Shown: positions 528-23,979, counted from the stretch's first letter. The stretch: DNA of 24,000 bases from Plastoroseomonas hellenica (GCF_018129085.1 NZ_JAAGBB010000018.1:49688-73687); one strand, 5' to 3'. Notes: a model not told the origin generated them from the sequence alone. Program-made: numbers and translations.

Positions 528-665
528 TGAATCACGCGATCAAACGAAGTCCTTGAGCATGGTGCGTGAGCGGAAGCGAACGCATCAGGCTGTAGCGCGC
601 CGCATTGACAGGGCGGGCGCTCTGCCGAAGGCTGCCGGTATAGAAGTATACAGGAGTGATTGGGC

Positions 666-2267
666 ATGCCGCTTCGCCATCGCCTCGGCTTGGCGCTCGC
701 CTGCTGGCTTGGCTGCGTGGCGCCACTGCCGGCCGCGGCCCAGACCTTGACCATGGGCGTCGAGGCGCCCTTCGGCCTCGATCCGCATTTCCTCTTCGCC
801 GGCCCCAACATGGCCGCCGCCCGCCACATCTACGACAGCCTGATCAACCGCGATGCCGAAAGTCGCTTCGTGCCCGGCATCGTCGAGAGCTGGCGGATGC
901 TCGATGACCGCACCTGGGAGCTGACGCTGCGGCGCGGCGTCACCTTCCACAATGGCAGCCCCTTCACCGCCGAGGACGTCGCCTTCACCCTGGCTCGCGT
1001 GCCCAACCTGCCGAACAATCCCGGCCCCTATACCTCCAACCTGCGCACCATCAGCCGGGTCGAGATCGTCGATTCCCACACGGTCCGCATCCTCACGGAC
1101 CGGACCAATCCGGTGCTGGTCGGGCAGCTCACCAATATCTTCGTCCTGTCGCGATCCGCGGCGGAGGGCGCGAGCACGGGCGATTTCGACAGCGGCCGCG
1201 CCGCCATCGGCACCGGTCCCTTCCGGCTGGTCCAGGCGCGCGGCACCGAAGGCATGGTGATCGCGCGGAACGAGACCTACTGGGGCGAAGGCGCGGCCTA
1301 CGAACGCGTGGAGCTGCGCGTCATCGGCAATGACGCCACGCGCCTCGCGGCGCTGCTCGCGGGCGATGTCGACCTGATCGAATCCGTGCCATCGGCCAAT
1401 GTCGAGCGGCTGGAGCGGGACCCGCGCATCGCGATCTTCCGGCGCAATTCCGACCGCATCATGTACCTGCTGCCGAATATCCGCGCCGGCCTGACCTTGC
1501 TGACCGATGCGACAGGCCAGCCGCTGCGCGATAATCCGCTGCGCGACCTGCGCGTCCGCCAGGCGCTGTCGCTCGCGATCGACCGGCAGGCGCTGGTGTC
1601 GCGCGCGCTGGACGGGCAGGGGGTCGCGACGGCGCAGATGGTGCCGGAGCAGTTCGGTGGTCACGATCCGGGCTATGCCGTGCCGCGCGCCGATCCCGCG
1701 CGGGCACGCGCCCTGCTGGCGGAGGCCGGCTATCCCAGCGGCTTCGGGATGACCATCGGCTGTTCCAACAACCGCTACACCAATGATGCGCGGGTCTGCC
1801 AGGCGGCAGGCCAGATGCTGTCGCGGGCGGGGCTGCAGATCAAGGTCGAGACCCAGCCCTGGAACGTCTTCTCCCCCCGCACCGTGGAGACGCGGAACGA
1901 CCTGCCGGTCATGCTGTACGGCTTGTCGCTCTCCTCCTCGCGTGACGCCAGCTACATCCTCTCGACTGCCGTGCACACGCGCAACGTCGCCGAGGCCTTC
2001 GGGCAGGGCAATCGCGGCCAGTTCAGCGATGCCCGGCTGGATGGGCTGATCGACGCCGTCATCATTCGCTCCGATGAAGGGCGCGAAGCGGCGCTGCGGC
2101 ATGCGATGCGGGAAGCGATGGATCAGATGCCGATCATCCCGCTCTACAACCAGGTCGTCATCGCCGCCGCGCGGCGCGGCATCACCTACACGCCGCGCAT
2201 GGATGAGCAGATGGTCGCCTATCAGGCGCGGCCGGATCGCGGCACCGCCCAGGGAGCAACACGATGA
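666..2267 (+). CDS. ABC transporter substrate-binding protein, family 5 (peptide/nickel/glutathione type, DppA/GsiB-like)
   Basis: 533 aa. N-terminal signal peptide (LGLALACWLGCVAPLPAAAQ). Family-5 strings include FVPGIVESWRMLDDRTWELTLRRGVTFHNGSPFTAEDV and NETYWGEGAAYERVELRVI. AGGAG at 652-656 lies 9 nt before the ATG at 666, which is better spaced than the TTG at 660 in the ORF track. Confidence 0.9.
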   Translation: MPLRHRLGLALACWLGCVAPLPAAAQTLTMGVEAPFGLDPHFLFAGPNMAAARHIYDSLINRDAESRFVPGIVESWRMLDDRTWELTLRRGVTFHNGSPFTAEDVAFTLARVPNLPNNPGPYTSNLRTISRVEIVDSHTVRILTDRTNPVLVGQLTNIFVLSRSAAEGASTGDFDSGRAAIGTGPFRLVQARGTEGMVIARNETYWGEGAAYERVELRVIGNDATRLAALLAGDVDLIESVPSANVERLERDPRIAIFRRNSDRIMYLLPNIRAGLTLLTDATGQPLRDNPLRDLRVRQALSLAIDRQALVSRALDGQGVATAQMVPEQFGGHDPGYAVPRADPARARALLAEAGYPSGFGMTIGCSNNRYTNDARVCQAAGQMLSRAGLQIKVETQPWNVFSPRTVETRNDLPVMLYGLSLSSSRDASYILSTAVHTRNVAEAFGQGNRGQFSDARLDGLIDAVIIRSDEGREAALRHAMREAMDQMPIIPLYNQVVIAAARRGITYTPRMDEQMVAYQARPDRGTAQGATR

Positions 2268-3967
2268 GCACCACACGCCCCGTCGTAGCGGGTCCGCGCC
2301 ATGCGATCAGCGCCGGCCATTACCTGGCCGCCGCCGCCGGCCTGACCATCCTGGAGAATGGCGGCAACGCCATCGATGCCGGGGTCGCGGCCGGGCTGGT
2401 GCTCGGCGTGGTGCAGCCCGACATCGTCAATGTCGGCGGCGTTGCGCCGATCATCATCCGCCGCGCCGATGGGCGGATCGAGAGCATCGCGGGGCTCGGC
2501 CATTGGCCGAAATCCATGCCGGCTGATTATTTCATGACCCATCACGGCGGCAAGATGCCCCGCGGGGTGCTGCGCACCGTGGTGCCGGCCGCACCCGATG
2601 CCTGGATCACCGCGCTGGAACGTCACGGCACCATGGGCTTCGCTGAGGTGGCGGGGTCGGCCATCCGCTTCGCCGAGGAAGGCTTCCCCGTCTATCCGAT
2701 GTTCGCGGAGAGCCTGACGCAGCACAACAAGGACTACCTGGACTGGCCGAGCAATGCCGCGGTCTTCCTGCGCGACGGCAAGCCGCCCAGGGTGGGCGAG
2801 CGCTTCCGCCAGACCGAGCTCGCCGCCATGCTGCGCTTCATGGCCGAGGAGGATCGTCGCGCTGCCGCGACGGGCGGGCGGCTCGCCGGCCTCGCCGCCG
2901 CGCACCATGCCTTTTACCGCGGCGACATCGCGCGGGTGATGGTCGATTTCATCCAGGCCGAGGGCGGGTTCCTCTCGCGCGATGATCTCTCCAGCTACCG
3001 CTCCCGCATCGAGCCGGTGGTGACGCGGGGCTGGCGCGGCCATGCGGTCTCCACCTGTGGGCCCTGGTGCCAGGGGCCGGCGCTGCTGGAGGCGCTGCTG
3101 CTGATGGAGCGGGCGGGCTTCGAAGGCATGGCGCACAACTCGGTCGACTACCTGCACGTGCTGACCGAAAGCCTGAAGGTCGCCATGGCGGACCGCGAAT
3201 ATCACTTCGCGGATCCCGCCTTCACCGATGTCCCGATCGACACCTTGCTGAGCGACGCCTATCTCGCGGCGCGGGTCGCCGGTTTCGATCCGGCGCGCGC
3301 CCATCCCGGCATGCCGGAGCCGCTGCTCGGCCAGGGCACGGTGCTGCCGCCGCCGAGCCGGCTCGACAAGCCGATCGCTGACCCCGACACCTCCTATGTC
3401 GGGGTGGTGGATGCGGAGGGGAATGCGTTTTCCGCCACACCGTCGGACGGCACCTTCAACGGGCCGATCATTCCCGGCCTCGGCATCATCGCCTCCGGCC
3501 GCGGCACGCAGTCGCGGCCCGATCCCGCGCATCCCTGCGGCGTCGGTCCCGGCAAGCGGCCGCGGCTGACGCCGAATCCGGCCATGGTGGTCACTCGCGA
3601 CGGGGCCGCGATGCCTTTGGGCACGCCGGGTGGCGACGTGCAGGTGCAGGCCATGCTGCAGGTCATGCTCAACCACCTGCATTTCGGCATGGATGTGCAG
3701 GCGGCGATCGAGGCGCCGCGCGTCTCGACCTATTCTTTCCCGTCCTCCTTCGCGCCCTATGAGTATTTCCCGGGCCGCCTCGCGGTGGAAAGCCGCATCC
3801 CCGCCGCCACGCGCGACGCGCTGCGGGCGCGCGGCCATGATGTGAAGGACTGGCCGGACTGGACCTGGCTGGCCGGCAGTGTCGAACTCGTCACCAGCGA
3901 TCCCGAGAGCGGCATGCGCATGGCGGGCGCCGATCCGCGCCGGCCGGCCTACGCCATGGCGATGTGA
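2264..3967 (+). CDS. Gamma-glutamyltransferase family protein (Ntn hydrolase), apparently cytoplasmic
   Basis: 567 aa. N-terminus HAISAGHYLAAAAGLTILENGGNAIDAGVAAG. Autoprocessing/nucleophile region PDTSYVGVVDAEGNAFSATPSDG. C-terminal GTPGGDVQVQAMLQVMLNHLHFGMDVQAAIEAPR. No signal peptide is visible. The ATGA overlap with the upstream binding-protein stop (2264-2267) and AGGGAG at 2251-2256 indicate translational coupling. Confidence 0.9.
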   Translation: MSTTRPVVAGPRHAISAGHYLAAAAGLTILENGGNAIDAGVAAGLVLGVVQPDIVNVGGVAPIIIRRADGRIESIAGLGHWPKSMPADYFMTHHGGKMPRGVLRTVVPAAPDAWITALERHGTMGFAEVAGSAIRFAEEGFPVYPMFAESLTQHNKDYLDWPSNAAVFLRDGKPPRVGERFRQTELAAMLRFMAEEDRRAAATGGRLAGLAAAHHAFYRGDIARVMVDFIQAEGGFLSRDDLSSYRSRIEPVVTRGWRGHAVSTCGPWCQGPALLEALLLMERAGFEGMAHNSVDYLHVLTESLKVAMADREYHFADPAFTDVPIDTLLSDAYLAARVAGFDPARAHPGMPEPLLGQGTVLPPPSRLDKPIADPDTSYVGVVDAEGNAFSATPSDGTFNGPIIPGLGIIASGRGTQSRPDPAHPCGVGPGKRPRLTPNPAMVVTRDGAAMPLGTPGGDVQVQAMLQVMLNHLHFGMDVQAAIEAPRVSTYSFPSSFAPYEYFPGRLAVESRIPAATRDALRARGHDVKDWPDWTWLAGSVELVTSDPESGMRMAGADPRRPAYAMAM

Positions 3968-4041
3968 CGCGGCGGCCTGGCGCCGCATCGCGTGTCTTGC
4001 ATCGTCGCCGGCCATGGCCTCCCCTGGTTGCGGAGGAGGGT

Positions 4042-4860
4042 ATGGCCACGACCGAGACGATTCGGCTGTCGGGTGAGCGGGAGACGCTGCTCGTCACCCT
4101 CTATGCCAAGGCCCTCGAAAGCCGCTCACCGGCCTCGATCCTGAAGGACAGCGTCGCCGACGCGATCGTGCGCCGGCTCGATTATGATTTCGCGCGGCTC
4201 GGGCTCGGCGCCAGGGATGCGACCGGCCTGGCGATCCGGGCCAAGTTCCTGGACGACCTGGTGCGCCGCTTCATCGCCGCGCACCCGGATGGGATCGTGC
4301 TCAATCTCGGCTGCGGGCTGGACAGCCGCATCGCCCGGGTCGATCCGCCGGCCGGCACCCGCTGGTTCGACCTGGACTATCCCGACGTGATCGACATCCG
4401 GCGCCGCTTCTATCCGGCGCGCGACGGCTATTCGATGATCGGATCCTCGGTCACCGAAGTCGGATGGCTGGAGGCGGTGCCCGACGACGGCCGGGCAATC
4501 ATCATCGCGGAAGGCCTGCTCGCCTATCTCGGGAGCGACGATGTCCCGCGGCTGCTCGATCGCCTGACCGCGCATTTCCCCGGCGGCGAACTGGCTTTCG
4601 ATGGCTACAGCAGCCTTGGCGTCGCGCTGCTGCCGCTGCATCCGGCGATCCGCGCCACCGGCGCCACGCTGCACTGGGCCATCGACGATCCCCGCGATCT
4701 GGAACGGCAGGTGCCGCGCCTGACCTTCGTCGCGGAGATCGCCGGGTCCGATTTCGAAGACCTCGCCCGTGCACCATGGCCGATGCAGATGCTGGCACGC
4801 ACCTTCGGCGCCATCCCCTTCCTGCGCCGGATGGGCCGCATGCTGCGCTACCGCTTCTAG
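4042..4860 (+). CDS. Class I SAM-dependent methyltransferase, leucine-carboxyl / TcmP-like O-methyltransferase family
   Basis: 272 aa from the ATG at 4042, which is preceded by GGAGGAGGG at 4032-4040. SAM-binding motif VLNLGCGLDSR, then WFDLDYPDVI and IIIAEGLLAYL, as in LCMT/TcmP-type methyltransferases. The ORF-track start at 3964 adds an Arg/Pro-rich extension with no RBS. Confidence 0.8.
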   Translation: MATTETIRLSGERETLLVTLYAKALESRSPASILKDSVADAIVRRLDYDFARLGLGARDATGLAIRAKFLDDLVRRFIAAHPDGIVLNLGCGLDSRIARVDPPAGTRWFDLDYPDVIDIRRRFYPARDGYSMIGSSVTEVGWLEAVPDDGRAIIIAEGLLAYLGSDDVPRLLDRLTAHFPGGELAFDGYSSLGVALLPLHPAIRATGATLHWAIDDPRDLERQVPRLTFVAEIAGSDFEDLARAPWPMQMLARTFGAIPFLRRMGRMLRYRF

Positions 4861-17074: not shown

Positions 17075-18886
17075 CTAGCGGAGCGCGGGATCGGGCGACG
17101 GCGCCGCTTCCATATCCGCGAGCACCCGCGCGACATGCGCGGCGAACAGGTCGACCAGCGCCAGCGCCTCGCTGGCCAGGGCCTCGCCATGGCGACGGAC
17201 CAGGCAGATCTGCCGTTCCAATGGCGGATCGCTGATCGCGTTGATCTGGAGCGCGCCCAATTGCACGGCGCCGCGCAAGGCGCCGAGCGGCAGCAGCGTC
17301 GCCCAGCCACCAGCCCGGACCAGCCGGATCGTCGCGGCGAGGCTGTCGATCTCAGCATCCGGTGCCACGTCCAGCCCGACGCGGGCGGCACCCCGATCCA
17401 CGATCCAGCGCAGCCCGTGATGGCGCGCCGGAAGTGCCAGGCGCAGCCTGGCCAGCATGCCGAGCGGCACCGGGCCCGTTGGCAGCAGGCCGGAGCCCGC
17501 GGCGGTCACGGCGACCAGCGGCTCGCGCGTGATCGGCCGCACCACGAGGCCGGGCTGCACGGCGTCATTGTCGACGAAGGCGCAGTCGATGCTGGAATTC
17601 AGGACCATCCGCCGCAACTCGTCGCTCAGCCCCTCCACCAGGTGCAGGCGTCGGTCGGGGAAGCGCTGGTTCCAGTCCGCGGCGCTGCGCGCCACGACCT
17701 CCGCCAGCAGGCTCATCTCGTCGAGCGCCGGGACGCAGCCGGCGCGCACCTGGCCGCGCGGACGGATGAGGCTGGGCCCGAGGCGGCCGAGATCCTGGAT
17801 GAAGGCCGCCGCCGGCGGTGCCAGCGCGTTGCCGAGCACGGTCGGCGTCAGCCCGTGCGGATGGCGCTGGAACAGGCGTTGCCCCAGCGCCGCCTCCAGG
17901 TGCTGCAATCGCAGGGTGGCAGCGGGCTGGGCGATGCCGAGTTCCCGCGCGGCCCGGGTCAGGCTCGCGTGCCGCCAGGCGGCTTCGAAGCAGTCGAGAT
18001 GCTCCCGCTCGATCGCCGTCGGCCAGGGGACCTGCGCCGGTGGCCGCAGGGCGGCAGCACCGATATGGCGAAGGATGCCGTGGGCCAGGATCGGTTCCAG
18101 GGCGGCCTCCCACGCATCCGCCGTGCCGGCGCTGCCGAGCAATTGCCAGCCGGGGCCGTCGGGCAGCGGCGACAGCAGGCGCAGGGTGGTCCTGCCATCG
18201 CGCAGCCAGCCCGGCAGCAGGAGCGAGGGCAGCAGCACGGGCCGGCGCCAGGGGCGCAGCGCTTCGTCGAGGCGATCCGGCGGCACGCCGAGCGGCACCG
18301 GCGTCAGCCCGCACGCCGCCGCCTGTGCCGCGGCGCCCTGCATCAGGGCAGGGGGCAATTCCGGCAGGCCGACGCTCTCCGCGCCGTCGGTGGGGCCGGC
18401 GAGGACCCAATGCTCGACCAGCCTCCCCGGCCGCTCACAGGCGTCCAGGGTGAAGCCCGCCTGCACCGCGGCGGCACCGGCCGGCAGCGCAAAGACATGC
18501 AGGTGCCGTTGCGGCATCTGCGCGGCGAGCTCGGTTGCGATTACCGCGGCGGCCTCCCGCGCCGGGCAGCCAGGTGCTGCGAGGCGCAGCCCGATCGCCA
18601 GCACCGCCGCAGGCTGCGAGACCCCGGCCGCGATCCGGCGCAGCGCCGCCTCCAGCTCAGCGAGCAGCGGCCTCGCAATGCGCTCGAATTGCCGTCCCGC
18701 GGCCGTCGGCACCAGGCCGCCTGCCTGGCGATCGAACAGCCTGGCGCCGAGGGCTTCCTCCAGCGCGCCGATCTGCACGCTCAGCGTCGCCGGTGCGCGG
18801 CCCATCTGGCGCGACGCGGCAGAGAGGCTGCCGGTATCGAAGGCGGCCAGGGCGCAGCGAAGCTGGCGGATCGTCGGCGGGTGCAG
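17075..18886 (-). CDS. Tandem (duplicated) LysR-type transcriptional regulator: two HTH plus effector-domain modules in one reading frame
   Basis: The frame is open from the TGA at 18893-18895 (minus strand) down to the TAG at 17075-17077. HTH-1 (about 18728-18874) is TIRQLRCALAAFDTGSLSAASRQMGRAPATLSVQIGALEEALGARLFDR. HTH-2 (about 17864-18001) is HLDCFEAAWRHASLTRAARELGIAQPAATLRLQHLEAALGQRLFQR. Each HTH is followed by an effector-domain-sized region of roughly 200-260 aa. The first ATG (18805) falls inside HTH-1. The 5' end given here assumes a CTG start at 18884-18886, preceded by AAGGGGG. The start codon is uncertain. Confidence 0.75.
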   Translation of the reverse strand: MHPPTIRQLRCALAAFDTGSLSAASRQMGRAPATLSVQIGALEEALGARLFDRQAGGLVPTAAGRQFERIARPLLAELEAALRRIAAGVSQPAAVLAIGLRLAAPGCPAREAAAVIATELAAQMPQRHLHVFALPAGAAAVQAGFTLDACERPGRLVEHWVLAGPTDGAESVGLPELPPALMQGAAAQAAACGLTPVPLGVPPDRLDEALRPWRRPVLLPSLLLPGWLRDGRTTLRLLSPLPDGPGWQLLGSAGTADAWEAALEPILAHGILRHIGAAALRPPAQVPWPTAIEREHLDCFEAAWRHASLTRAARELGIAQPAATLRLQHLEAALGQRLFQRHPHGLTPTVLGNALAPPAAAFIQDLGRLGPSLIRPRGQVRAGCVPALDEMSLLAEVVARSAADWNQRFPDRRLHLVEGLSDELRRMVLNSSIDCAFVDNDAVQPGLVVRPITREPLVAVTAAGSGLLPTGPVPLGMLARLRLALPARHHGLRWIVDRGAARVGLDVAPDAEIDSLAATIRLVRAGGWATLLPLGALRGAVQLGALQINAISDPPLERQICLVRRHGEALASEALALVDLFAAHVARVLADMEAAPSPDPALR

Positions 18887-18994
18887 CGCTGAAGCCCCCT
18901 TCGCTCAATCTTATGGCCTTCGTCACCAAACCATATTGGACGCGCCGCCATGCACTGCAACACGCTCGTCATCGGAGAGCGAATGGGGATGGTG

Positions 18995-20614
18995 ATGGCA
19001 CGCAACATCAAGGCCCAGCGGGGTAACCTCCTGCGCTGCAAGGGATGGCGGCAGGAGAGCATCCTGCGGATGCTCGAGAACAACCTCGAGAATGGCGAGG
19101 ATCCCGAGAACCTCATCATCTACACCGGCGCCCGCGCCGCGCGGAGCTGGGCCGATTACGACCGCATCGTCGGCGCGCTGCAGGCGCTGGAGGCGGATGA
19201 GACGCTGATCTGCCAATCCGGCCGCGCGGTCGCGAAGTTCCGGTCCCATGTGCGGGCGCCGCGCGTGGTGATGGCCAATGGCAATGTCTTGGGACGCTGG
19301 GGTACGCCCGATCAGTTCCATGAGCTGGAGCAGAAGGGCCTGACGGTGACGCCGGGCATGACCGCCGCCGCCTGGCAGTATATCGGCAGCCAGGGGATCC
19401 TGCAGGGCACCTACCAGTCCTTCATGGGCGCCGGGCAGCAATTCTTCGGCGGCGACCTGCGCGGCCGGCTGATCCTGACCGCCGGCTGCGGTGGCATGGG
19501 CGGCGCGCAGCCGCTGGCCGGCAAGCTCGCGGGCGCCGCGATCCTGGTCGTCGAACCCTCCCGCGCGCGGATCGAACGCCGTATCGCCAGCGGCTATTGC
19601 GACCGCATCACCGAGGATCTGGAGGAAGCGCTGCGCTGGGTGCTGGATGCCAAGGCATCGCGCAGCGCGCTGTCGGTCGGCCTGGTCGGCAATGCGGCCG
19701 TGGTGCATCCGCTGCTGCTGGAACGCGGCATCTTCCCGGACATCGTCACCGATCAGGTGAACACCGACCCCTATCGCGGCTACATCCCCGCCGGCATGAC
19801 GCCGGAGGAAGCCGCGGCGCTCGCGCAATCCGACCAGGCGGAGCGCAAGCGCCGCGCCGAGGCAAGCCTCATCGTGCATGCGCGGGCGATGCTGGAGTTC
19901 CGCCGCCGCGGCGCCATCGTCTTCGAATACGGCAACGGCTTGCGCCTGCGCACCGCCGATCTCGGCGAGACGGAGATGCTCTCCATGGAGAGCTTCGTCA
20001 CCATGTTCATCCGGCCGCTGTTCTGCGACGGCTATGGCCCCTTCCGCTGGCTCGCGATCTCCGGCGATCCGCAGGACATCGCGGAGATCGACGGCATCGT
20101 GGAGGAGACCTTCTCCCACAACCATTCGATCAACCACTGGATTCCGCTGGCGCGGGAGCATGTGCACTTCACCGGCCTGCCGGCGCGCATCGGCTGGCTC
20201 GGTCATGGCGAGCGCAGCCTGCTGGCGACCAAGGTGAATGAGGCGGTGGCCCAGGGCCGCACCAAGGGGCCGATCGCCTTCACCCGCGATCACCTCGATG
20301 CCGGCTCGGTCGCCAACCCCTTCCGGGAGAGCGAGAAGATGCAGGACGGGTCGGAGGCGATCTCGGACTGGCCGATCCTGAACGCGCTGCTCGCCTGTGC
20401 GAATGGCGCCGATCTCGTCGCCGTGCACTCGCGGGGTGGCTATTCCAATCAATCTGCTGGCCAGACCACGATCGCCGATGGCGATCCGCTGTCGGCGGAG
20501 CGGCTGCGCGCGGTGCTGGATGGCGATACCGGCATCGGCATCATGCGCCATGCCGAAGCGGGGTATGAGCGCGCGCTGACGAACAAGGCCAATTTCGGCC
20601 TGGGCTTCGCCTGA
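18995..20614 (+). CDS. Urocanate hydratase (urocanase) family protein, divergent paralogue in a non-hut context
   Basis: About 539 aa. Alternative in-frame ATGs lie at 18983 and 18989, and the ORF-track ATG is at 18950. Urocanase fold motifs are present: the NAD-binding segment LTAGCGGMGGAQPLAG, QYIGSQGILQGTYQSF, FIRPLFCDGYGPFRW, TRDHLDAGSVANPFRESEKMQDGSEAISDWPILNALL and GIGIMRHAEAGYE. Several motifs that are near-invariant in canonical HutU are altered; see findings. Confidence 0.88.
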   Translation: MARNIKAQRGNLLRCKGWRQESILRMLENNLENGEDPENLIIYTGARAARSWADYDRIVGALQALEADETLICQSGRAVAKFRSHVRAPRVVMANGNVLGRWGTPDQFHELEQKGLTVTPGMTAAAWQYIGSQGILQGTYQSFMGAGQQFFGGDLRGRLILTAGCGGMGGAQPLAGKLAGAAILVVEPSRARIERRIASGYCDRITEDLEEALRWVLDAKASRSALSVGLVGNAAVVHPLLLERGIFPDIVTDQVNTDPYRGYIPAGMTPEEAAALAQSDQAERKRRAEASLIVHARAMLEFRRRGAIVFEYGNGLRLRTADLGETEMLSMESFVTMFIRPLFCDGYGPFRWLAISGDPQDIAEIDGIVEETFSHNHSINHWIPLAREHVHFTGLPARIGWLGHGERSLLATKVNEAVAQGRTKGPIAFTRDHLDAGSVANPFRESEKMQDGSEAISDWPILNALLACANGADLVAVHSRGGYSNQSAGQTTIADGDPLSAERLRAVLDGDTGIGIMRHAEAGYERALTNKANFGLGFA

Positions 20615-21234
20615 TGTACGTCCTGCATGATAGCCGGCTGTCCGGCAATGCCTGGAAGGTGCGGATCCTGCTCTCGCAGCTCGGCCTGCCCTTCCGCCGC
20701 GTCAGCTATGTGCTGCCGGAAGGCCGCACCCGCACGCCGGAATTCCTGGCGAAGAATCCGGTCGGCAAGGTGCCGATGCTGGAGCTGCCTTCGGGGGAGG
20801 CGCTGTTCGAATCGAATGCCATCCTCTGCCACCTGGCGGAAGGCACGCCCTTCCTGCCGGAGGGCCTCGACCGCGCGCGCGTCCTGCAATGGATGTTCTT
20901 CGATCAGTCGGAGGCGCTGAAGGCGCTGGCAGGCGCACGCTTCTGGATCGGCATCGCGAAGAAGCCGGAGGAGAAGGCGGCCGAGATTCCGGTCTGGCAT
21001 GCTGCCGGCAACAAGGCGCTCGGCATTCTCGACGGCCATCTGGCGGCGCGGGATTTCCTGGTGGGAGAGCGCTACACGATCGCCGACCTCGCCAACTTCC
21101 CCTACGTCGCCATGGCGCATGAAGGCGGCTTCGATATGGCGCGCTATCCGAACGTGACGGCCTGGATCGACCGCATCCGCGCCCAGCCCGGCCATGTGCC
21201 GCTGATCCAGGATGACGCGAAGGGAGTGGTGTGA
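20614..21234 (+). CDS. Glutathione S-transferase family protein
   Basis: 206 aa. N-terminal thioredoxin-like domain: SGNAWKVRILLSQLGLPF...FLAKNPVGKVPMLELPSGEALFESNAILCHLAEG. C-terminal helical domain: RARVLQWMFFDQ...YTIADLANFPYV. The start overlaps the upstream stop codon by 1 nt (TGATG at 20612-20616). Confidence 0.88.
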   Translation: MYVLHDSRLSGNAWKVRILLSQLGLPFRRVSYVLPEGRTRTPEFLAKNPVGKVPMLELPSGEALFESNAILCHLAEGTPFLPEGLDRARVLQWMFFDQSEALKALAGARFWIGIAKKPEEKAAEIPVWHAAGNKALGILDGHLAARDFLVGERYTIADLANFPYVAMAHEGGFDMARYPNVTAWIDRIRAQPGHVPLIQDDAKGVV

Positions 21235-22295
21235 TGCGGGTGAAGCTCGATCTCGACGCGCTCGAAGGCGCGGTCCTCGGCGGGCTGGTGCTCTCGGCGG
21301 GCGGCAGCGGCGTGAAGCGCGGCGAGCGCAACCGCCGCATCGGCGAACAGGCGCTGGACTACGGCCCGCTCATGATGGTGACCCTCGACGAGCTGGAGGA
21401 TGACGCCGGCATCATCGTCGCGACTGGCGTCAGCGCGCCCGGCTTCGCCAAGGCGATCACCTCGATGCGCGATTCGATCCAGTCGGCGGAGATGCTGATT
21501 GCCGCGACCGGCGGGGGCAGGCCGGCGGGCGTGATGCCGGGCCATGTGCCGGGGCTGATGGCCTGGATGCAGGCGGCGGTGCTCGGCATCCCCCTGGTCG
21601 ATGCCGCGACCAATGGGCGCGGTCATCCGACGGTGAAGATGGGCGGCATGGGCCTCGCCTCGCGGCCGGAGGTCGCGGTGACCCAGGCCGGCTGCGGCGG
21701 CGCCAGGGATGACCGGGTCGAGATCGTGGTCACCGGCAGCATGGCCAAGACTTCGACCATCATGCGCGCCGCCTCGGTGCAGAATGGCGGCAGCCTCTAC
21801 GCGACTCGCGGGCCCTTCGCCGCAAGCTTCGTCCGCCAGGGCGGCGCGCCGGGCGCAATGAGCTTCGCGACCAATCTCGGCCGCGCCATGCTTGCCAAGC
21901 CGGCTGGCTTCGCCCGGGTGGAGGCGGCCGCTGCCTTCCTCGAGGGCGAGGTGCTGGTCGTCGGCCGGGTCGAGGCCAATGACGTGCGTTACGATGGCGG
22001 CTTCGATGTCGGCCGGGTGGTCATCGCCGGCGATGGCGGGCGCATCACCCTGCATGTCTACAACGAGTACATGGCGGCCGACGCCGACGGCGTTCGCGTC
22101 CGCACCTTCCCGGACATGATGGGGTCCTTCGATCCGGCGACCGGTGCGCCGATCGCGATCAATGAGATGCCGGTGGGCCGCGAGGTCGCCATCGTCTCCG
22201 GCCCGCGCAGCGCCTTCCCGGTCGGCGCCGGCGCCACCGATCCCGCCGTCTTCCCGGAAGTGGAGGAAAAGCTGGGCGTACCGCTCGCCCCCTGA
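21234..22295 (+). CDS. DUF917-like protein (hydantoinase-neighbourhood family); function unknown here
   Basis: 353 aa from the ATG at 21234, with AGGGAG 7 nt upstream. A GTG at 21231 is an alternative start. The N-terminal pattern LDALEGAVLGGLVLSAGGSG...GPLMMVTLDELEDDAGIIVATGVSAP resembles my memory of the DUF917 N-terminal consensus (Gly-rich loop, then ...ELPDD...G.P). The length also fits that family. The call is from memory, not from an HMM. The start overlaps the GST stop codon by 1 nt (TGATG). Confidence 0.5.
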   Translation: MRVKLDLDALEGAVLGGLVLSAGGSGVKRGERNRRIGEQALDYGPLMMVTLDELEDDAGIIVATGVSAPGFAKAITSMRDSIQSAEMLIAATGGGRPAGVMPGHVPGLMAWMQAAVLGIPLVDAATNGRGHPTVKMGGMGLASRPEVAVTQAGCGGARDDRVEIVVTGSMAKTSTIMRAASVQNGGSLYATRGPFAASFVRQGGAPGAMSFATNLGRAMLAKPAGFARVEAAAAFLEGEVLVVGRVEANDVRYDGGFDVGRVVIAGDGGRITLHVYNEYMAADADGVRVRTFPDMMGSFDPATGAPIAINEMPVGREVAIVSGPRSAFPVGAGATDPAVFPEVEEKLGVPLAP

Positions 22296-22389
22296 CGGGG
22301 TGCGGGGAGGAGGAAGCGGGCGCCAGACCCGCGGACAGTCACGGCACTCGCACTGCCGCCATCCATCCGCTGACGAGACGGAGAGACGC

Positions 22390-23979
22390 ATGCAACGCCG
22401 CCATTTCCTCGCTGCCGCGACCTCCCTTGCCGCCGCGCATTCACTCGCGCGGCCCGCCTATGCGCAAGGCGCCGCCAAGGTCCTCCGCGTCATCCCAGCG
22501 GCCAATCTGACCAGCCTGGATCCGATCTGGACCACGGCGCCGGCCACCAAGAATCACGGCTATCTCGTCTATGACCAGATCGCCGCGGTCGACGCCGAAT
22601 TCGTCCCCCGCCCGCAGATGGCCGAAGGCTGGGAGATCGGTGATGACGGCCGGAGCTGGACCTTCATGCTCCGCGAAGGGCTGCGCTTCCATGATGGGGA
22701 ACCGGTGCGCAGCGCCGACTGCATCGCCTCCATCCGTCGCTGGTGGGCGCGCGACGTCTTCGGCCAGGTGCTGGCATCCCAGACCGATGATATCGAGGCG
22801 CTCGACGACCGCCGCTTCCGCTTCCGCCTGAAGCGGCCCTTCCCGATGCTGGCCGCGGCACTCGGCAAGTCCAACTCCTCACAATGCTTCATCATGCCGG
22901 AACGGATCGCGCGGACCGATCCCGGTCAGCAGATCACCGATCCGACCGGCAGTGGGCCCTTCCGTTTCCTGCGCGAGCAATGGGTGGCCGGCGTCAAGGC
23001 CGTCTATGCGAAGCACGAAGCCTATGTGCCGCGTAGCGAGCCGGTCAGCAGCATCGCCGGTGGCCGGGTGGCGCGGGTCGACCGCATCGAATGGACGGTG
23101 ATCCCCGATGCCGCGACGGCGGCCGCCGCGCTCCGCACCGGGGAGCAGGATTACTGGGACCAGGCGATGCACGACCTGCTGCCGTCCCTCCGGCGCGACC
23201 GCAACATCGTGGTGGAACCGCGCGATCGCTCCGGCACCTATGCGATGCTGCGCTTCAACCACCTGCAGGCGCCTTTCAACAATCCGGCGATCCGCCAGGC
23301 GGTGGCGATGGCGGTTGACCAGTCGCAGTACATGCAGGCCGTCGCCGGCAACGAACCCGGCGCCTGGGGCACCTGCGAGGGCTTCTTCGCCTGCAGCGGT
23401 CCGATGGCGAGCGAGGCCGGTAACGCCGTGCTGAAGACCCGCAGCATCGAACGCGCCCAGGCGGCACTGCGCGCCGCCGGCTACAATGGCGAGAAGGTGG
23501 TGCAGATCGCAGCGACCGACAGCGCGCCGCTCACGGCGGTCAGCGAAGTCACCGCCGACCTGTTGCGGCGCATGGGCTTCAACCTCGACTACGTCGCGTC
23601 CGACTGGGGCTCCATGCTGCAGCGGCGCAACAGCCGGGAGCCGGTGGAGCGCGGCGGCTGGAGCGTCTTCCACACCGTCTGGAATGGCGCCGATATCCTG
23701 AGCCCCGCGGTCAACACCCTGGTCCGCGCCAATGGCGGCGCCGCCTGGTTCGGCTGGCCGAGCGATCCCGAGCTCGAGACGCTGCGCAACGCCTGGTTCG
23801 AAGCGCCGGATCTCGCGAGCCAGCAGGCGGTGGTCCAGCGGCTGCAGGAACAGGCCTTCCGATCGATGCCCTATGTGCCGCTTGGTTATTACGTGCAGCC
23901 CGCGGCGTGGCGACGGAACGTGACCGGCGTCTTCCCGGTGCCGACGACGGTCTACTGGAACATCGGCAAGTCGGATTGA
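22390..23979 (+). CDS. ABC transporter substrate-binding protein, family 5, with twin-arginine signal peptide
   Basis: 529 aa from the ATG at 22390, with GGAGAG at 22380-22385. Tat motif MQRRHFLAAATSLAAAHSLARPAYAQG. Family-5 strings FVPRPQMAEGWEIGDDGRSWTFMLREGLRFHDGEPV and YVPLGYYVQPAAWRRNVTG. The 246-nt upstream part of the ORF-track entry (22144-22389) overlaps the preceding gene and has no support. Confidence 0.9.
   Translation: MQRRHFLAAATSLAAAHSLARPAYAQGAAKVLRVIPAANLTSLDPIWTTAPATKNHGYLVYDQIAAVDAEFVPRPQMAEGWEIGDDGRSWTFMLREGLRFHDGEPVRSADCIASIRRWWARDVFGQVLASQTDDIEALDDRRFRFRLKRPFPMLAAALGKSNSSQCFIMPERIARTDPGQQITDPTGSGPFRFLREQWVAGVKAVYAKHEAYVPRSEPVSSIAGGRVARVDRIEWTVIPDAATAAAALRTGEQDYWDQAMHDLLPSLRRDRNIVVEPRDRSGTYAMLRFNHLQAPFNNPAIRQAVAMAVDQSQYMQAVAGNEPGAWGTCEGFFACSGPMASEAGNAVLKTRSIERAQAALRAAGYNGEKVVQIAATDSAPLTAVSEVTADLLRRMGFNLDYVASDWGSMLQRRNSREPVERGGWSVFHTVWNGADILSPAVNTLVRANGGAAWFGWPSDPELETLRNAWFEAPDLASQQAVVQRLQEQAFRSMPYVPLGYYVQPAAWRRNVTGVFPVPTTVYWNIGKSD

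Follow-up and report, generated by a model that had tools for sequence, protein, structure and literature searches.

What substrate is served by a urocanase homologue that has no hut genes around it and is encoded next to a glutathione S-transferase (GST) and a DUF917-like protein? This question is raised by a 24,000-nt stretch of Plastoroseomonas hellenica DNA (hereafter, the window; GCF_018129085.1, NZ_JAAGBB010000018.1:49688-73687), which carries genes for these three proteins and for a family-5 solute-binding protein on the (+) strand, behind a divergently oriented LysR-type regulator gene. We found that the urocanase homologue and the DUF917-like protein fall into the families of S-methyl thiourocanate hydratases and S-methyl thiohydantoin desulfurases, respectively, and consider it likely that the genes form a compact module for the catabolism of S-methyl thiourocanate, or for the release of its sulfur, under the divergent tandem LysR regulator. 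S-methyl thiourocanate is the acrylate derived from S-methyl-ergothioneine.

The 539-aa product of the first gene (18995-20614) passed NCBIfam model NF058531 for S-methyl thiourocanate hydratase (973.7 bits; cut-off, 880) and the generic hutU model (648 bits; cut-off, 375), while failing the model for thiourocanate hydratase (674 bits; cut-off, 930). Three Pfam domains, Urocanase_N (PF17391), Urocanase (PF01175), and Urocanase_C (PF17392), matched at full length, and the NAD-binding glycine motif GCGGMGGAQPLAG is present. The best solved structures were 8Q9V and 8Q9U, followed by 7NED, the thiourocanate hydratase of the ergothioneine route. The hydratase is 52% identical to 7NED and 62% identical to PDB 8Q9V, whose sequence matches, at 100% identity, a protein of Variovorax sp. 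RA8 that UniRef lists as S-methyl thiourocanate hydratase. The window enzyme and that of Variovorax have in common the stretches PGMTAA.WQY, TDQxxxDPYRGY, and FEYGN as well as ~16 further discriminating columns; the residues that discriminate against thiourocanate hydratases and HutU include G96, T117, S333, S408, A417, and D509. In addition, the TDQ-(3 residues)-DPYRGY stretch of the hydratase is one residue shorter than TDQTSAHDP.

An earlier note on this DNA had flagged four motifs at which the enzyme departs from HutU. These departures are real, as the standard forms (VVYGGIGRAARDW, FGQMTAGSWIYIGTQG, TDQTSAHDPVNGY, and HHGGGVGMGFS) are present in a canonical HutU encoded at a related locus, and the four motifs are exactly the regions that separate HutU, thiourocanate hydratase, and the S-methyl type. 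The note had proposed a thiourocanate or S-methyl-thiourocanate substrate, and the curated scores, together with the signatures held in common with the nearest structure, the Variovorax enzyme, answer for the S-methyl type; by family, the urocanase homologue is thus predicted to be an S-methyl-type thiourocanate hydratase. The accompanying warning that such a gene could be misannotated as hutU was justified, because the generic hutU model is passed and public homologues carry the label "urocanate hydratase."

A corresponding result was obtained for the third gene (21234-22295), for which the note had suggested a search against PF06032. Its 353-aa product matched S-Me-THD_N (PF06032; 33.9 bits) and S-Me-THD_C (PF20906; 76.3 bits), the renamed DUF917 domains, above a cut-off of 27 each. 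It also passed NF058532 for S-methyl thiohydantoin desulfurase (528 bits; cut-off, 450) and failed the model for thiohydantoin desulfurase (252 bits; cut-off, 440), which assigns it, by family, to the predicted S-methyl thiohydantoin desulfurases. Since both enzymes fall in already described, curated families, the enzyme core of the operon is a further case of a known pathway, and the pathway itself is not new. What stands outside any database name that we queried is the role of the GST, the minimal architecture without a lyase, and the tandem LysR regulator, and the remaining interest of the locus lies in the conserved, unexplained GST.

The three genes occupy the (+) strand at 18995 (or 18950)-20614, 20614-21234, and 21234-22295, and TGATG stop/start overlaps can be read directly in the sequence at 20612-20616, between the hydratase and GST genes, and at 21232-21236, between the GST and desulfurase genes. 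The hydratase, GST, and desulfurase genes are translationally coupled, and a 95-nt gap separates them from the binding-protein gene (22390-23979, (+) strand), all of which agrees with the operon structure described earlier. Candidate start codons for the hydratase are the ATGs at 18983, 18989, and 18995, and NF058531 aligns from residue 3 of the protein that starts at 18995. We also considered an open reading frame (ORF) at 17457-18995 (512 aa), the stop of which likewise forms a TGATG with the hydratase start, as a fourth coupled gene; it was rejected as an antisense shadow of the LysR gene, because it is the latter, on the (−) strand, that has Pfam matches and shows the codon-position GC pattern expected of a genuine gene. 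As the earlier note had stated, hutH, hutI, hutG, hutF, and hutC are missing from the window, i.e., from its other 15 genes. The possibility that they lie just beyond it found no support within the 8 kb past the 3′ end, where an identical public contig continues with P-type ATPase, Nramp, and regulator genes and contains neither hut nor Ert genes. In related loci, true hutU-hutI-hutF-hutC sets sit separately.

The nearest known system is the operon for S-methyl-ergothioneine catabolism in Variovorax sp. RA8 (hydratase crystal structures 8Q9V and 8Q9U), the proteins of which are 62% (hydratase), 47% (desulfurase), and 50% (GST) identical to those of the window. Both loci pass the same NCBIfam models, hold the GST gene contiguous with the desulfurase gene behind a divergent LysR gene, and lack a lyase gene in the cluster. 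They differ in gene order, which is hydratase-desulfurase-GST in Variovorax and hydratase-GST-desulfurase in the window. Moreover, Variovorax has ErtD and ErtE genes upstream and genes for a TctC receptor, a cysteine-dioxygenase-like protein, and a BisC-family molybdoenzyme downstream (complete order: ErtD-ErtE-hydratase-desulfurase-GST-TctC-cysteine-dioxygenase-like-BisC-like), whereas the family-5 binding protein and the double-length LysR regulator are found in the window only.

The ergothioneine route, as outlined by Beliaeva et al. (2021; cited in PMC12922746), proceeds through ergothionase, thiourocanate hydratase, thiohydantoin desulfurase, ErtD, and ErtE. The window enzymes belong to the same superfamilies as the corresponding two enzymes of that route, in which a 2-thio-substituted urocanate is likewise hydrated before its sulfur is removed to give hydantoin-5-propionate. 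They differ in failing its curated cut-offs and in the leaving group, which would be methanethiol rather than H2S; in addition, the ergothioneine-type clusters examined lack a GST gene. The S-methyl variant follows the same pathway logic as the ergothioneine route.

By analogy, we propose the following sequence of events, for which the family assignments are our own results, while the hydratase chemistry is taken from the characterized Variovorax homologue and the desulfurase chemistry from the family name. The family-5 binding protein would capture the substrate, with permeases encoded elsewhere. Subsequently, the urocanase homologue, with its tightly bound NAD+, would add water across S-methyl thiourocanate to yield 3-(2-methylthio-5-oxo-imidazol-4-yl)propionate, and the desulfurase would hydrolyze the S-methyl-isothiourea carbon of this product, releasing methanethiol and hydantoin-5-propionate. 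The GST may serve as a dedicated accessory of the desulfurase step, with glutathione acting on the electrophilic C2-thioether intermediate or on the thiol leaving group. Finally, the lyase that converts the betaine to the acrylate, and ErtD and ErtE, which convert hydantoin-5-propionate to glutamate, would be encoded elsewhere in the genome or supplied by other organisms. If the naming is corrected in this way, the predicted metabolism shifts from histidine use to the breakdown of ergothioneine derivatives with release of methanethiol.

We next consider the GST (20614-21234, (+) strand; 206 aa), which the earlier note had regarded as an extra element that the known schemes do not obviously explain. 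Its role is indeed left unexplained by them, but it is no peculiarity of this locus, being a regular member of such clusters, including the Variovorax reference operon. Among 56 GTDB species-representative loci retrieved by the desulfurase, 51 are evaluable, and in 44 of these the S-methyl-type desulfurase has a GST homologue as its immediate neighbor; the arrangements number at least five and come from three classes of proteobacteria. This answers the note's call to check whether the triad is conserved. The same holds on the pAt plasmid of Agrobacterium tumefaciens Ach5 and on a Lichenihabitans plasmid. The orders are hydratase-GST-desulfurase in Acetobacteraceae, desulfurase-GST-hydratase in Bradyrhizobium and Pantoea, desulfurase-GST-ErtE-hydratase in Agrobacterium, and hydratase-desulfurase-GST in Variovorax, some Xanthobacteraceae, and a TRAP (tripartite ATP-independent periplasmic transporter)-linked variant, so that the GST stays beside the desulfurase despite lineage-specific changes of gene order and transporter type. 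Pairwise identities of the hydratase, GST, and desulfurase co-vary (r = 0.96-0.97 overall; 0.73-0.82 among 10 non-redundant representatives). Of seven look-ups started from the GST, five led to hydratase/desulfurase clusters, one to a locus with ErtD only, and one to a gene standing alone beside a transposase. The ergothioneine-type clusters on Paracoccus and Rhizobium plasmids (two fully visible) read ErtD-ErtE-DUF917-hydratase, with no GST gene.

All four Pfam models GST_N, GST_N_2, GST_N_3, and GST_C match the protein, while no NCBIfam model was passed: the scores for YfcG (71.7 bits; cut-off, 332), YghU (57; 325), and maiA (58.3; 171) indicate, by the curated equivalog cut-offs, that it is neither a Nu-class (YfcG/YghU) nor a zeta-class (MaiA) enzyme. 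The nearest structures are 3M3M (174 bits), 3M8N (153 bits), and 4HZ2 (144 bits), which are structural-genomics entries without an assigned function. The glutathione-site residues S10-G11-N12, cis-P54, and E66-S67 are kept, with P54, E66, and S67 conserved in at least 98% of 96 members of the cluster-associated subgroup, recognizable by the sequence DS(R/K)LSGNAWK. Markers of this subgroup are S7, R/K8 (96%), L9, A13, W14, and (D/E)100-x-x-(R/K)103. A sister subgroup, which like the cluster subgroup carries no functional assignment, instead has invariant L8, G13, Y14, and S-H-E-P. R/K8 and R/K103 are specific to the cluster subgroup. The structural-genomics SGNxYK GSTs (3M3M from Pseudomonas, 3M8N from Rhodopseudomonas, and 4HZ2 from Xanthobacter) have the catalytic S-G-N loop, the cis-Pro, E-S, W93, Q98, R109, D158, and Y164 in common with the cluster GSTs, from which they differ at S7, R/K8, L9, A13, W14, and (D/E)100-x-x-(R/K)103. 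The marker positions presumably lie in the catalytic loop and helix 4 of the GST fold, lining the second-substrate site. Judging from these residues, the two extra basic side chains would suit a carboxylate-bearing ligand, e.g., a pathway intermediate.

The GST is thus strongly co-inherited, coupled, and, by its residues, glutathione-competent. An explanation of it would either fill a gap in the pathway or change the scheme, and would provide the first function within a large bacterial GST family that is represented only by structural-genomics entries. We tie the GST to the desulfurase step because it is found with the S-methyl branch and in none of the ergothioneine-type clusters that we examined. 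As the branches differ by the electrophilic S-methyl-isothiourea carbon and the thiol leaving group, the most economical guess is a glutathione-dependent exchange, rescue, or reduction, i.e., thiol exchange, adduct rescue, or the reduction of methyl mixed disulfides or S-oxides. The BisC-family and cysteine-dioxygenase-like genes of related clusters (see below) fit accessory sulfur handling. A generic enzyme that was recruited repeatedly is not favored, since the identities of the GST track those of the hydratase and desulfurase and the subgroup has specific residues of its own. Beyond this, we put forward tentatively, as a joint proposal that we hold to be less than an even bet, that GSTs of this subgroup serve the catabolism of S-alkyl-thioimidazoles as a dedicated sixth enzyme, performing a glutathione step outside the published five-step scheme, and that the clusters without a lyase, which are the majority, may use S-methyl thiourocanate or related acids set free by other organisms, not S-methyl-ergothioneine. 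Possible reactions of such an enzyme are thiolysis or rescue at the C2-thioether of S-methyl-isothiohydantoin, or the processing of the released thiol or of S-oxidized substrates.

Several points weigh against our reading of the locus. The preference of the hydratase for the S-substituent is extrapolated from one characterized homologue at 62% identity, and no lyase, ErtD, or ErtE gene lies nearby from which to tell what P. hellenica naturally takes in and what becomes of the product. Concerning the GST, it is not strictly required, as it is absent from 7 of the 51 loci, and GSTs of the same subgroup occur outside such clusters (Caenimonas P0030) and with ErtD alone (locus L065; L numbers denote related loci). 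Although we found no database name for its role, a role may already have been published.

Other readings of the same genes differ in how well they withstand these data. An ordinary HutU of histidine catabolism that stands beside unrelated genes would have the three-domain, NAD+-containing urocanase fold (e.g., PDB 1UWK), pass the generic hutU model at 648 bits against a cut-off of 375, and have homologues labeled as urocanate hydratases, as is the case here. However, the S-methyl model scores far higher, the motifs of the substrate region are unlike those of canonical HutU in the same genomes, and the gene has no hutH, hutI, hutG, or hutF nearby but is translationally coupled to those of a GST and a DUF917 desulfurase, the latter being found downstream instead of an imidazolonepropionase. 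The chance that the enzyme is a HutU is therefore practically negligible, and its unlikeness to the canonical form leaves the substrate reading of the earlier note standing. A pathway of the ergothioneine type, with a thiourocanate hydratase and a thiohydantoin desulfurase releasing H2S, would draw on the same fold and chemistry, and its models do give 674 and 252 bits for the window proteins, but both values are well under the cut-offs of 930 and 440. Furthermore, the genuine pairs in related loci are 47-50% (hydratase) and 33-40% (desulfurase) identical to the window proteins and come without a GST, which makes such a pathway very improbable.

Two further readings alter the substrate or the purpose of the module rather than its enzymes. 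The same enzymes could act on another 2-thioimidazole acrylate, carrying an S-alkyl, sulfoxide, or Se-methyl group, with the GST handling the substituent. The occurrence of BisC-family and cysteine-dioxygenase-like sulfur genes in related clusters and the wide variation of transporter types would agree with this, whereas the passing of cut-offs built around S-methyl enzymes by both proteins, and the absence of any of the extra sulfur genes from the window, argue that it is unlikely. Alternatively, the unit could be a sulfur-scavenging module, from which methanethiol is assimilated and hydantoin-5-propionate discarded. Compatible with the same chemistry, this option has a small but appreciable probability: the closest relatives (L002, L003, and L067) keep only the hydratase, GST, desulfurase, and family-5 binding protein, with no ErtD, ErtE, or lyase gene nearby, and LysR-type regulation is found in many sulfur-starvation regulons, but in L069, L071, L058, and L059 the triad has ErtD and ErtE genes next to it, and in P. 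hellenica these genes may lie elsewhere in the genome.

The S-methyl thiourocanate module that we favor would need both a source of its acrylate and an outlet for its product. Neither a HAL (histidine ammonia-lyase)-family (PF00221-type) lyase nor ErtD (hydantoin-5-propionate amidohydrolase) and ErtE (N-carbamyl-glutamate amidohydrolase) is encoded in the window or the 8 kb downstream. ErtD and ErtE are present in the relatives L049, L058, L069, and L071, while a HAL-family lyase was found within 10 kb in only 6 of ~70 related loci. The Lichenihabitans lyase (L059, 16697-18229) is a genuine histidine ammonia-lyase by score (680 bits; cut-off, 539), whereas that of Agrobacterium (L058, 23137-24630) is divergent (427 bits) and lies beside a ProXWV betaine transporter. 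This difference suggests that the entry substrates differ as well, being an amino acid in Lichenihabitans and a betaine in Agrobacterium; because of it, we suppose that clusters of this type may, according to lineage, work on the betaine, on the amino acid, or on the free acid. Transporters across the related clusters are of the Opp/family-5, Liv, ProX, TRAP, TctC, and TauA-like types, and these, along with the clusters without a lyase, raise the question of which compound is taken up in soils.

As for uptake in P. hellenica, the binding protein is periplasmic and has a family-5 domain (SBP_bac_5; 212 bits) and an N-terminus, MQRRHFLAAATSLAAAHSLARPAYA, that appears twin-arginine (Tat)-like by reading of the sequence alone, in line with the earlier description. 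There are no permease or ATPase genes adjoining it. Downstream of the triad, this gene recurs in L002, L003, L004, and L067. In L069, a somewhat more distant relative, OppBCDF-type permease and ATPase genes come after the binding-protein gene, and the locus has ErtD-like and ErtE-like genes as well. Since L069 pairs a family-5 binding protein with a full Opp-type transporter beside the same triad, the binding protein is probably the uptake receptor for the pathway substrate. Its closest solved structure is PDB 8VDX (448 bits), a "bacterial extracellular solute-binding protein" with no ligand named; the ligand of 8VDX, if any, could indicate the pathway substrate.

The regulator gene (17075-18805, (−) strand) encodes a tandem, or double-module, LysR-type protein of 576 aa, with Pfam matches to HTH_1 in two stretches and to LysR_substrate. 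In 38 related loci, double-length homologues (620-660 aa; 26-31% and 70% identity) are found at the corresponding divergent position. The full N-terminal helix-turn-helix of the regulator probably extends to about 18880, where the in-frame upstream sequence encodes ...LHPPTIRQLRCALAAFDTGSLSAASRQM but offers no ATG, GTG, or TTG start; relatives begin with MPTLPTLRQLRC. Translation from a CTG codon, degradation of the first module, or an error in the sequence may account for this. By its position, the divergent intergenic region (18806-18994) presumably holds the promoter and operator. A sigma-70-like site was not found in it, and its sole imperfect palindrome (18869-18906) is not above chance; likewise, scanning the intergenic regions for promoters, terminators, and palindromes returned nothing above chance.

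Several related clusters display additional genes. A UbiD-family decarboxylase (of the prenylated flavin mononucleotide type) is the first gene of a Liv-transporter/desulfurase/GST/hydratase operon in L049 (4121-5476) and 37 other Bradyrhizobium/Xanthobacteraceae loci, often followed by ornithine-cyclodeaminase-like and PhnD-like genes and with no lyase. BisC-family molybdopterin S/N-oxide reductases, of which the window has none, are encoded inside S-methyl-type clusters of Agrobacterium, a second Bradyrhizobium cluster, Pantoea, and Variovorax (L058, 16572-18902; L063, 10613-12955; and L071, 14395-17286). A cysteine-dioxygenase-like protein is found in the Variovorax and Caenimonas (L072) clusters, the latter of which also contains a family-III coenzyme A (CoA)-transferase and an enoyl-CoA hydratase. 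Taken together, the BisC-family, cysteine-dioxygenase-like, and CoA genes hint at extra processing of the sulfur group. In L070 (941-8923), a TRAP transporter precedes hydratase-desulfurase-GST, and an Asp/Glu-racemase-family protein and a CN-hydrolase replace ErtD/ErtE, a variant that points to free-acid uptake and a different downstream route.

Irregular placements of the GST were observed as well. In L065 (6298-12008), GST and ErtD genes lie behind a tandem LysR gene, with a family-5/Opp transporter, an M20 hydrolase, and a BisC-like reductase on the other side and no hydratase or desulfurase within 10 kb. On a 117-kb contig of Caenimonas soli (L072, L060), the desulfurase gene is apart from that of the hydratase and has no adjoining GST gene, while two copies of the subgroup GST are located elsewhere, one of them beside a transposase and a truncated LysR gene, so that the S-methyl-type cluster looks rearranged. 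A GST-hydratase fusion in L037 was considered as Rosetta-stone evidence and rejected, since frameshift errors in this long-read metagenome-assembled genome make the reading frame run on.

The remaining genes of the window comprise a TctC fragment, a trio for a family-5 binding protein, a gamma-glutamyltranspeptidase, and a methyltransferase, an ATP-binding cassette (ABC) exporter, a glycosyltransferase, a histidine kinase/response regulator/CreD set, a sugar ABC system, and a metallophosphoesterase, in addition to the LysR regulator. In the trio (660-4860), stop/start overlaps at 2264-2267 and 3964-3967 couple the genes of a second orphan family-5 binding protein, the gamma-glutamyltranspeptidase, and a leucine-carboxyl-methyltransferase-like protein. 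We found no support for the trio as part of the system, as it lies 14 kb away with unrelated genes in between and was not seen in related loci. The segment 8099-11868 encodes, on the (−) strand, a histidine kinase together with an OmpR-type response regulator and then, divergently, a CreD-family inner-membrane protein; these form a CreBC/CreD-like set that is unrelated to the operon.

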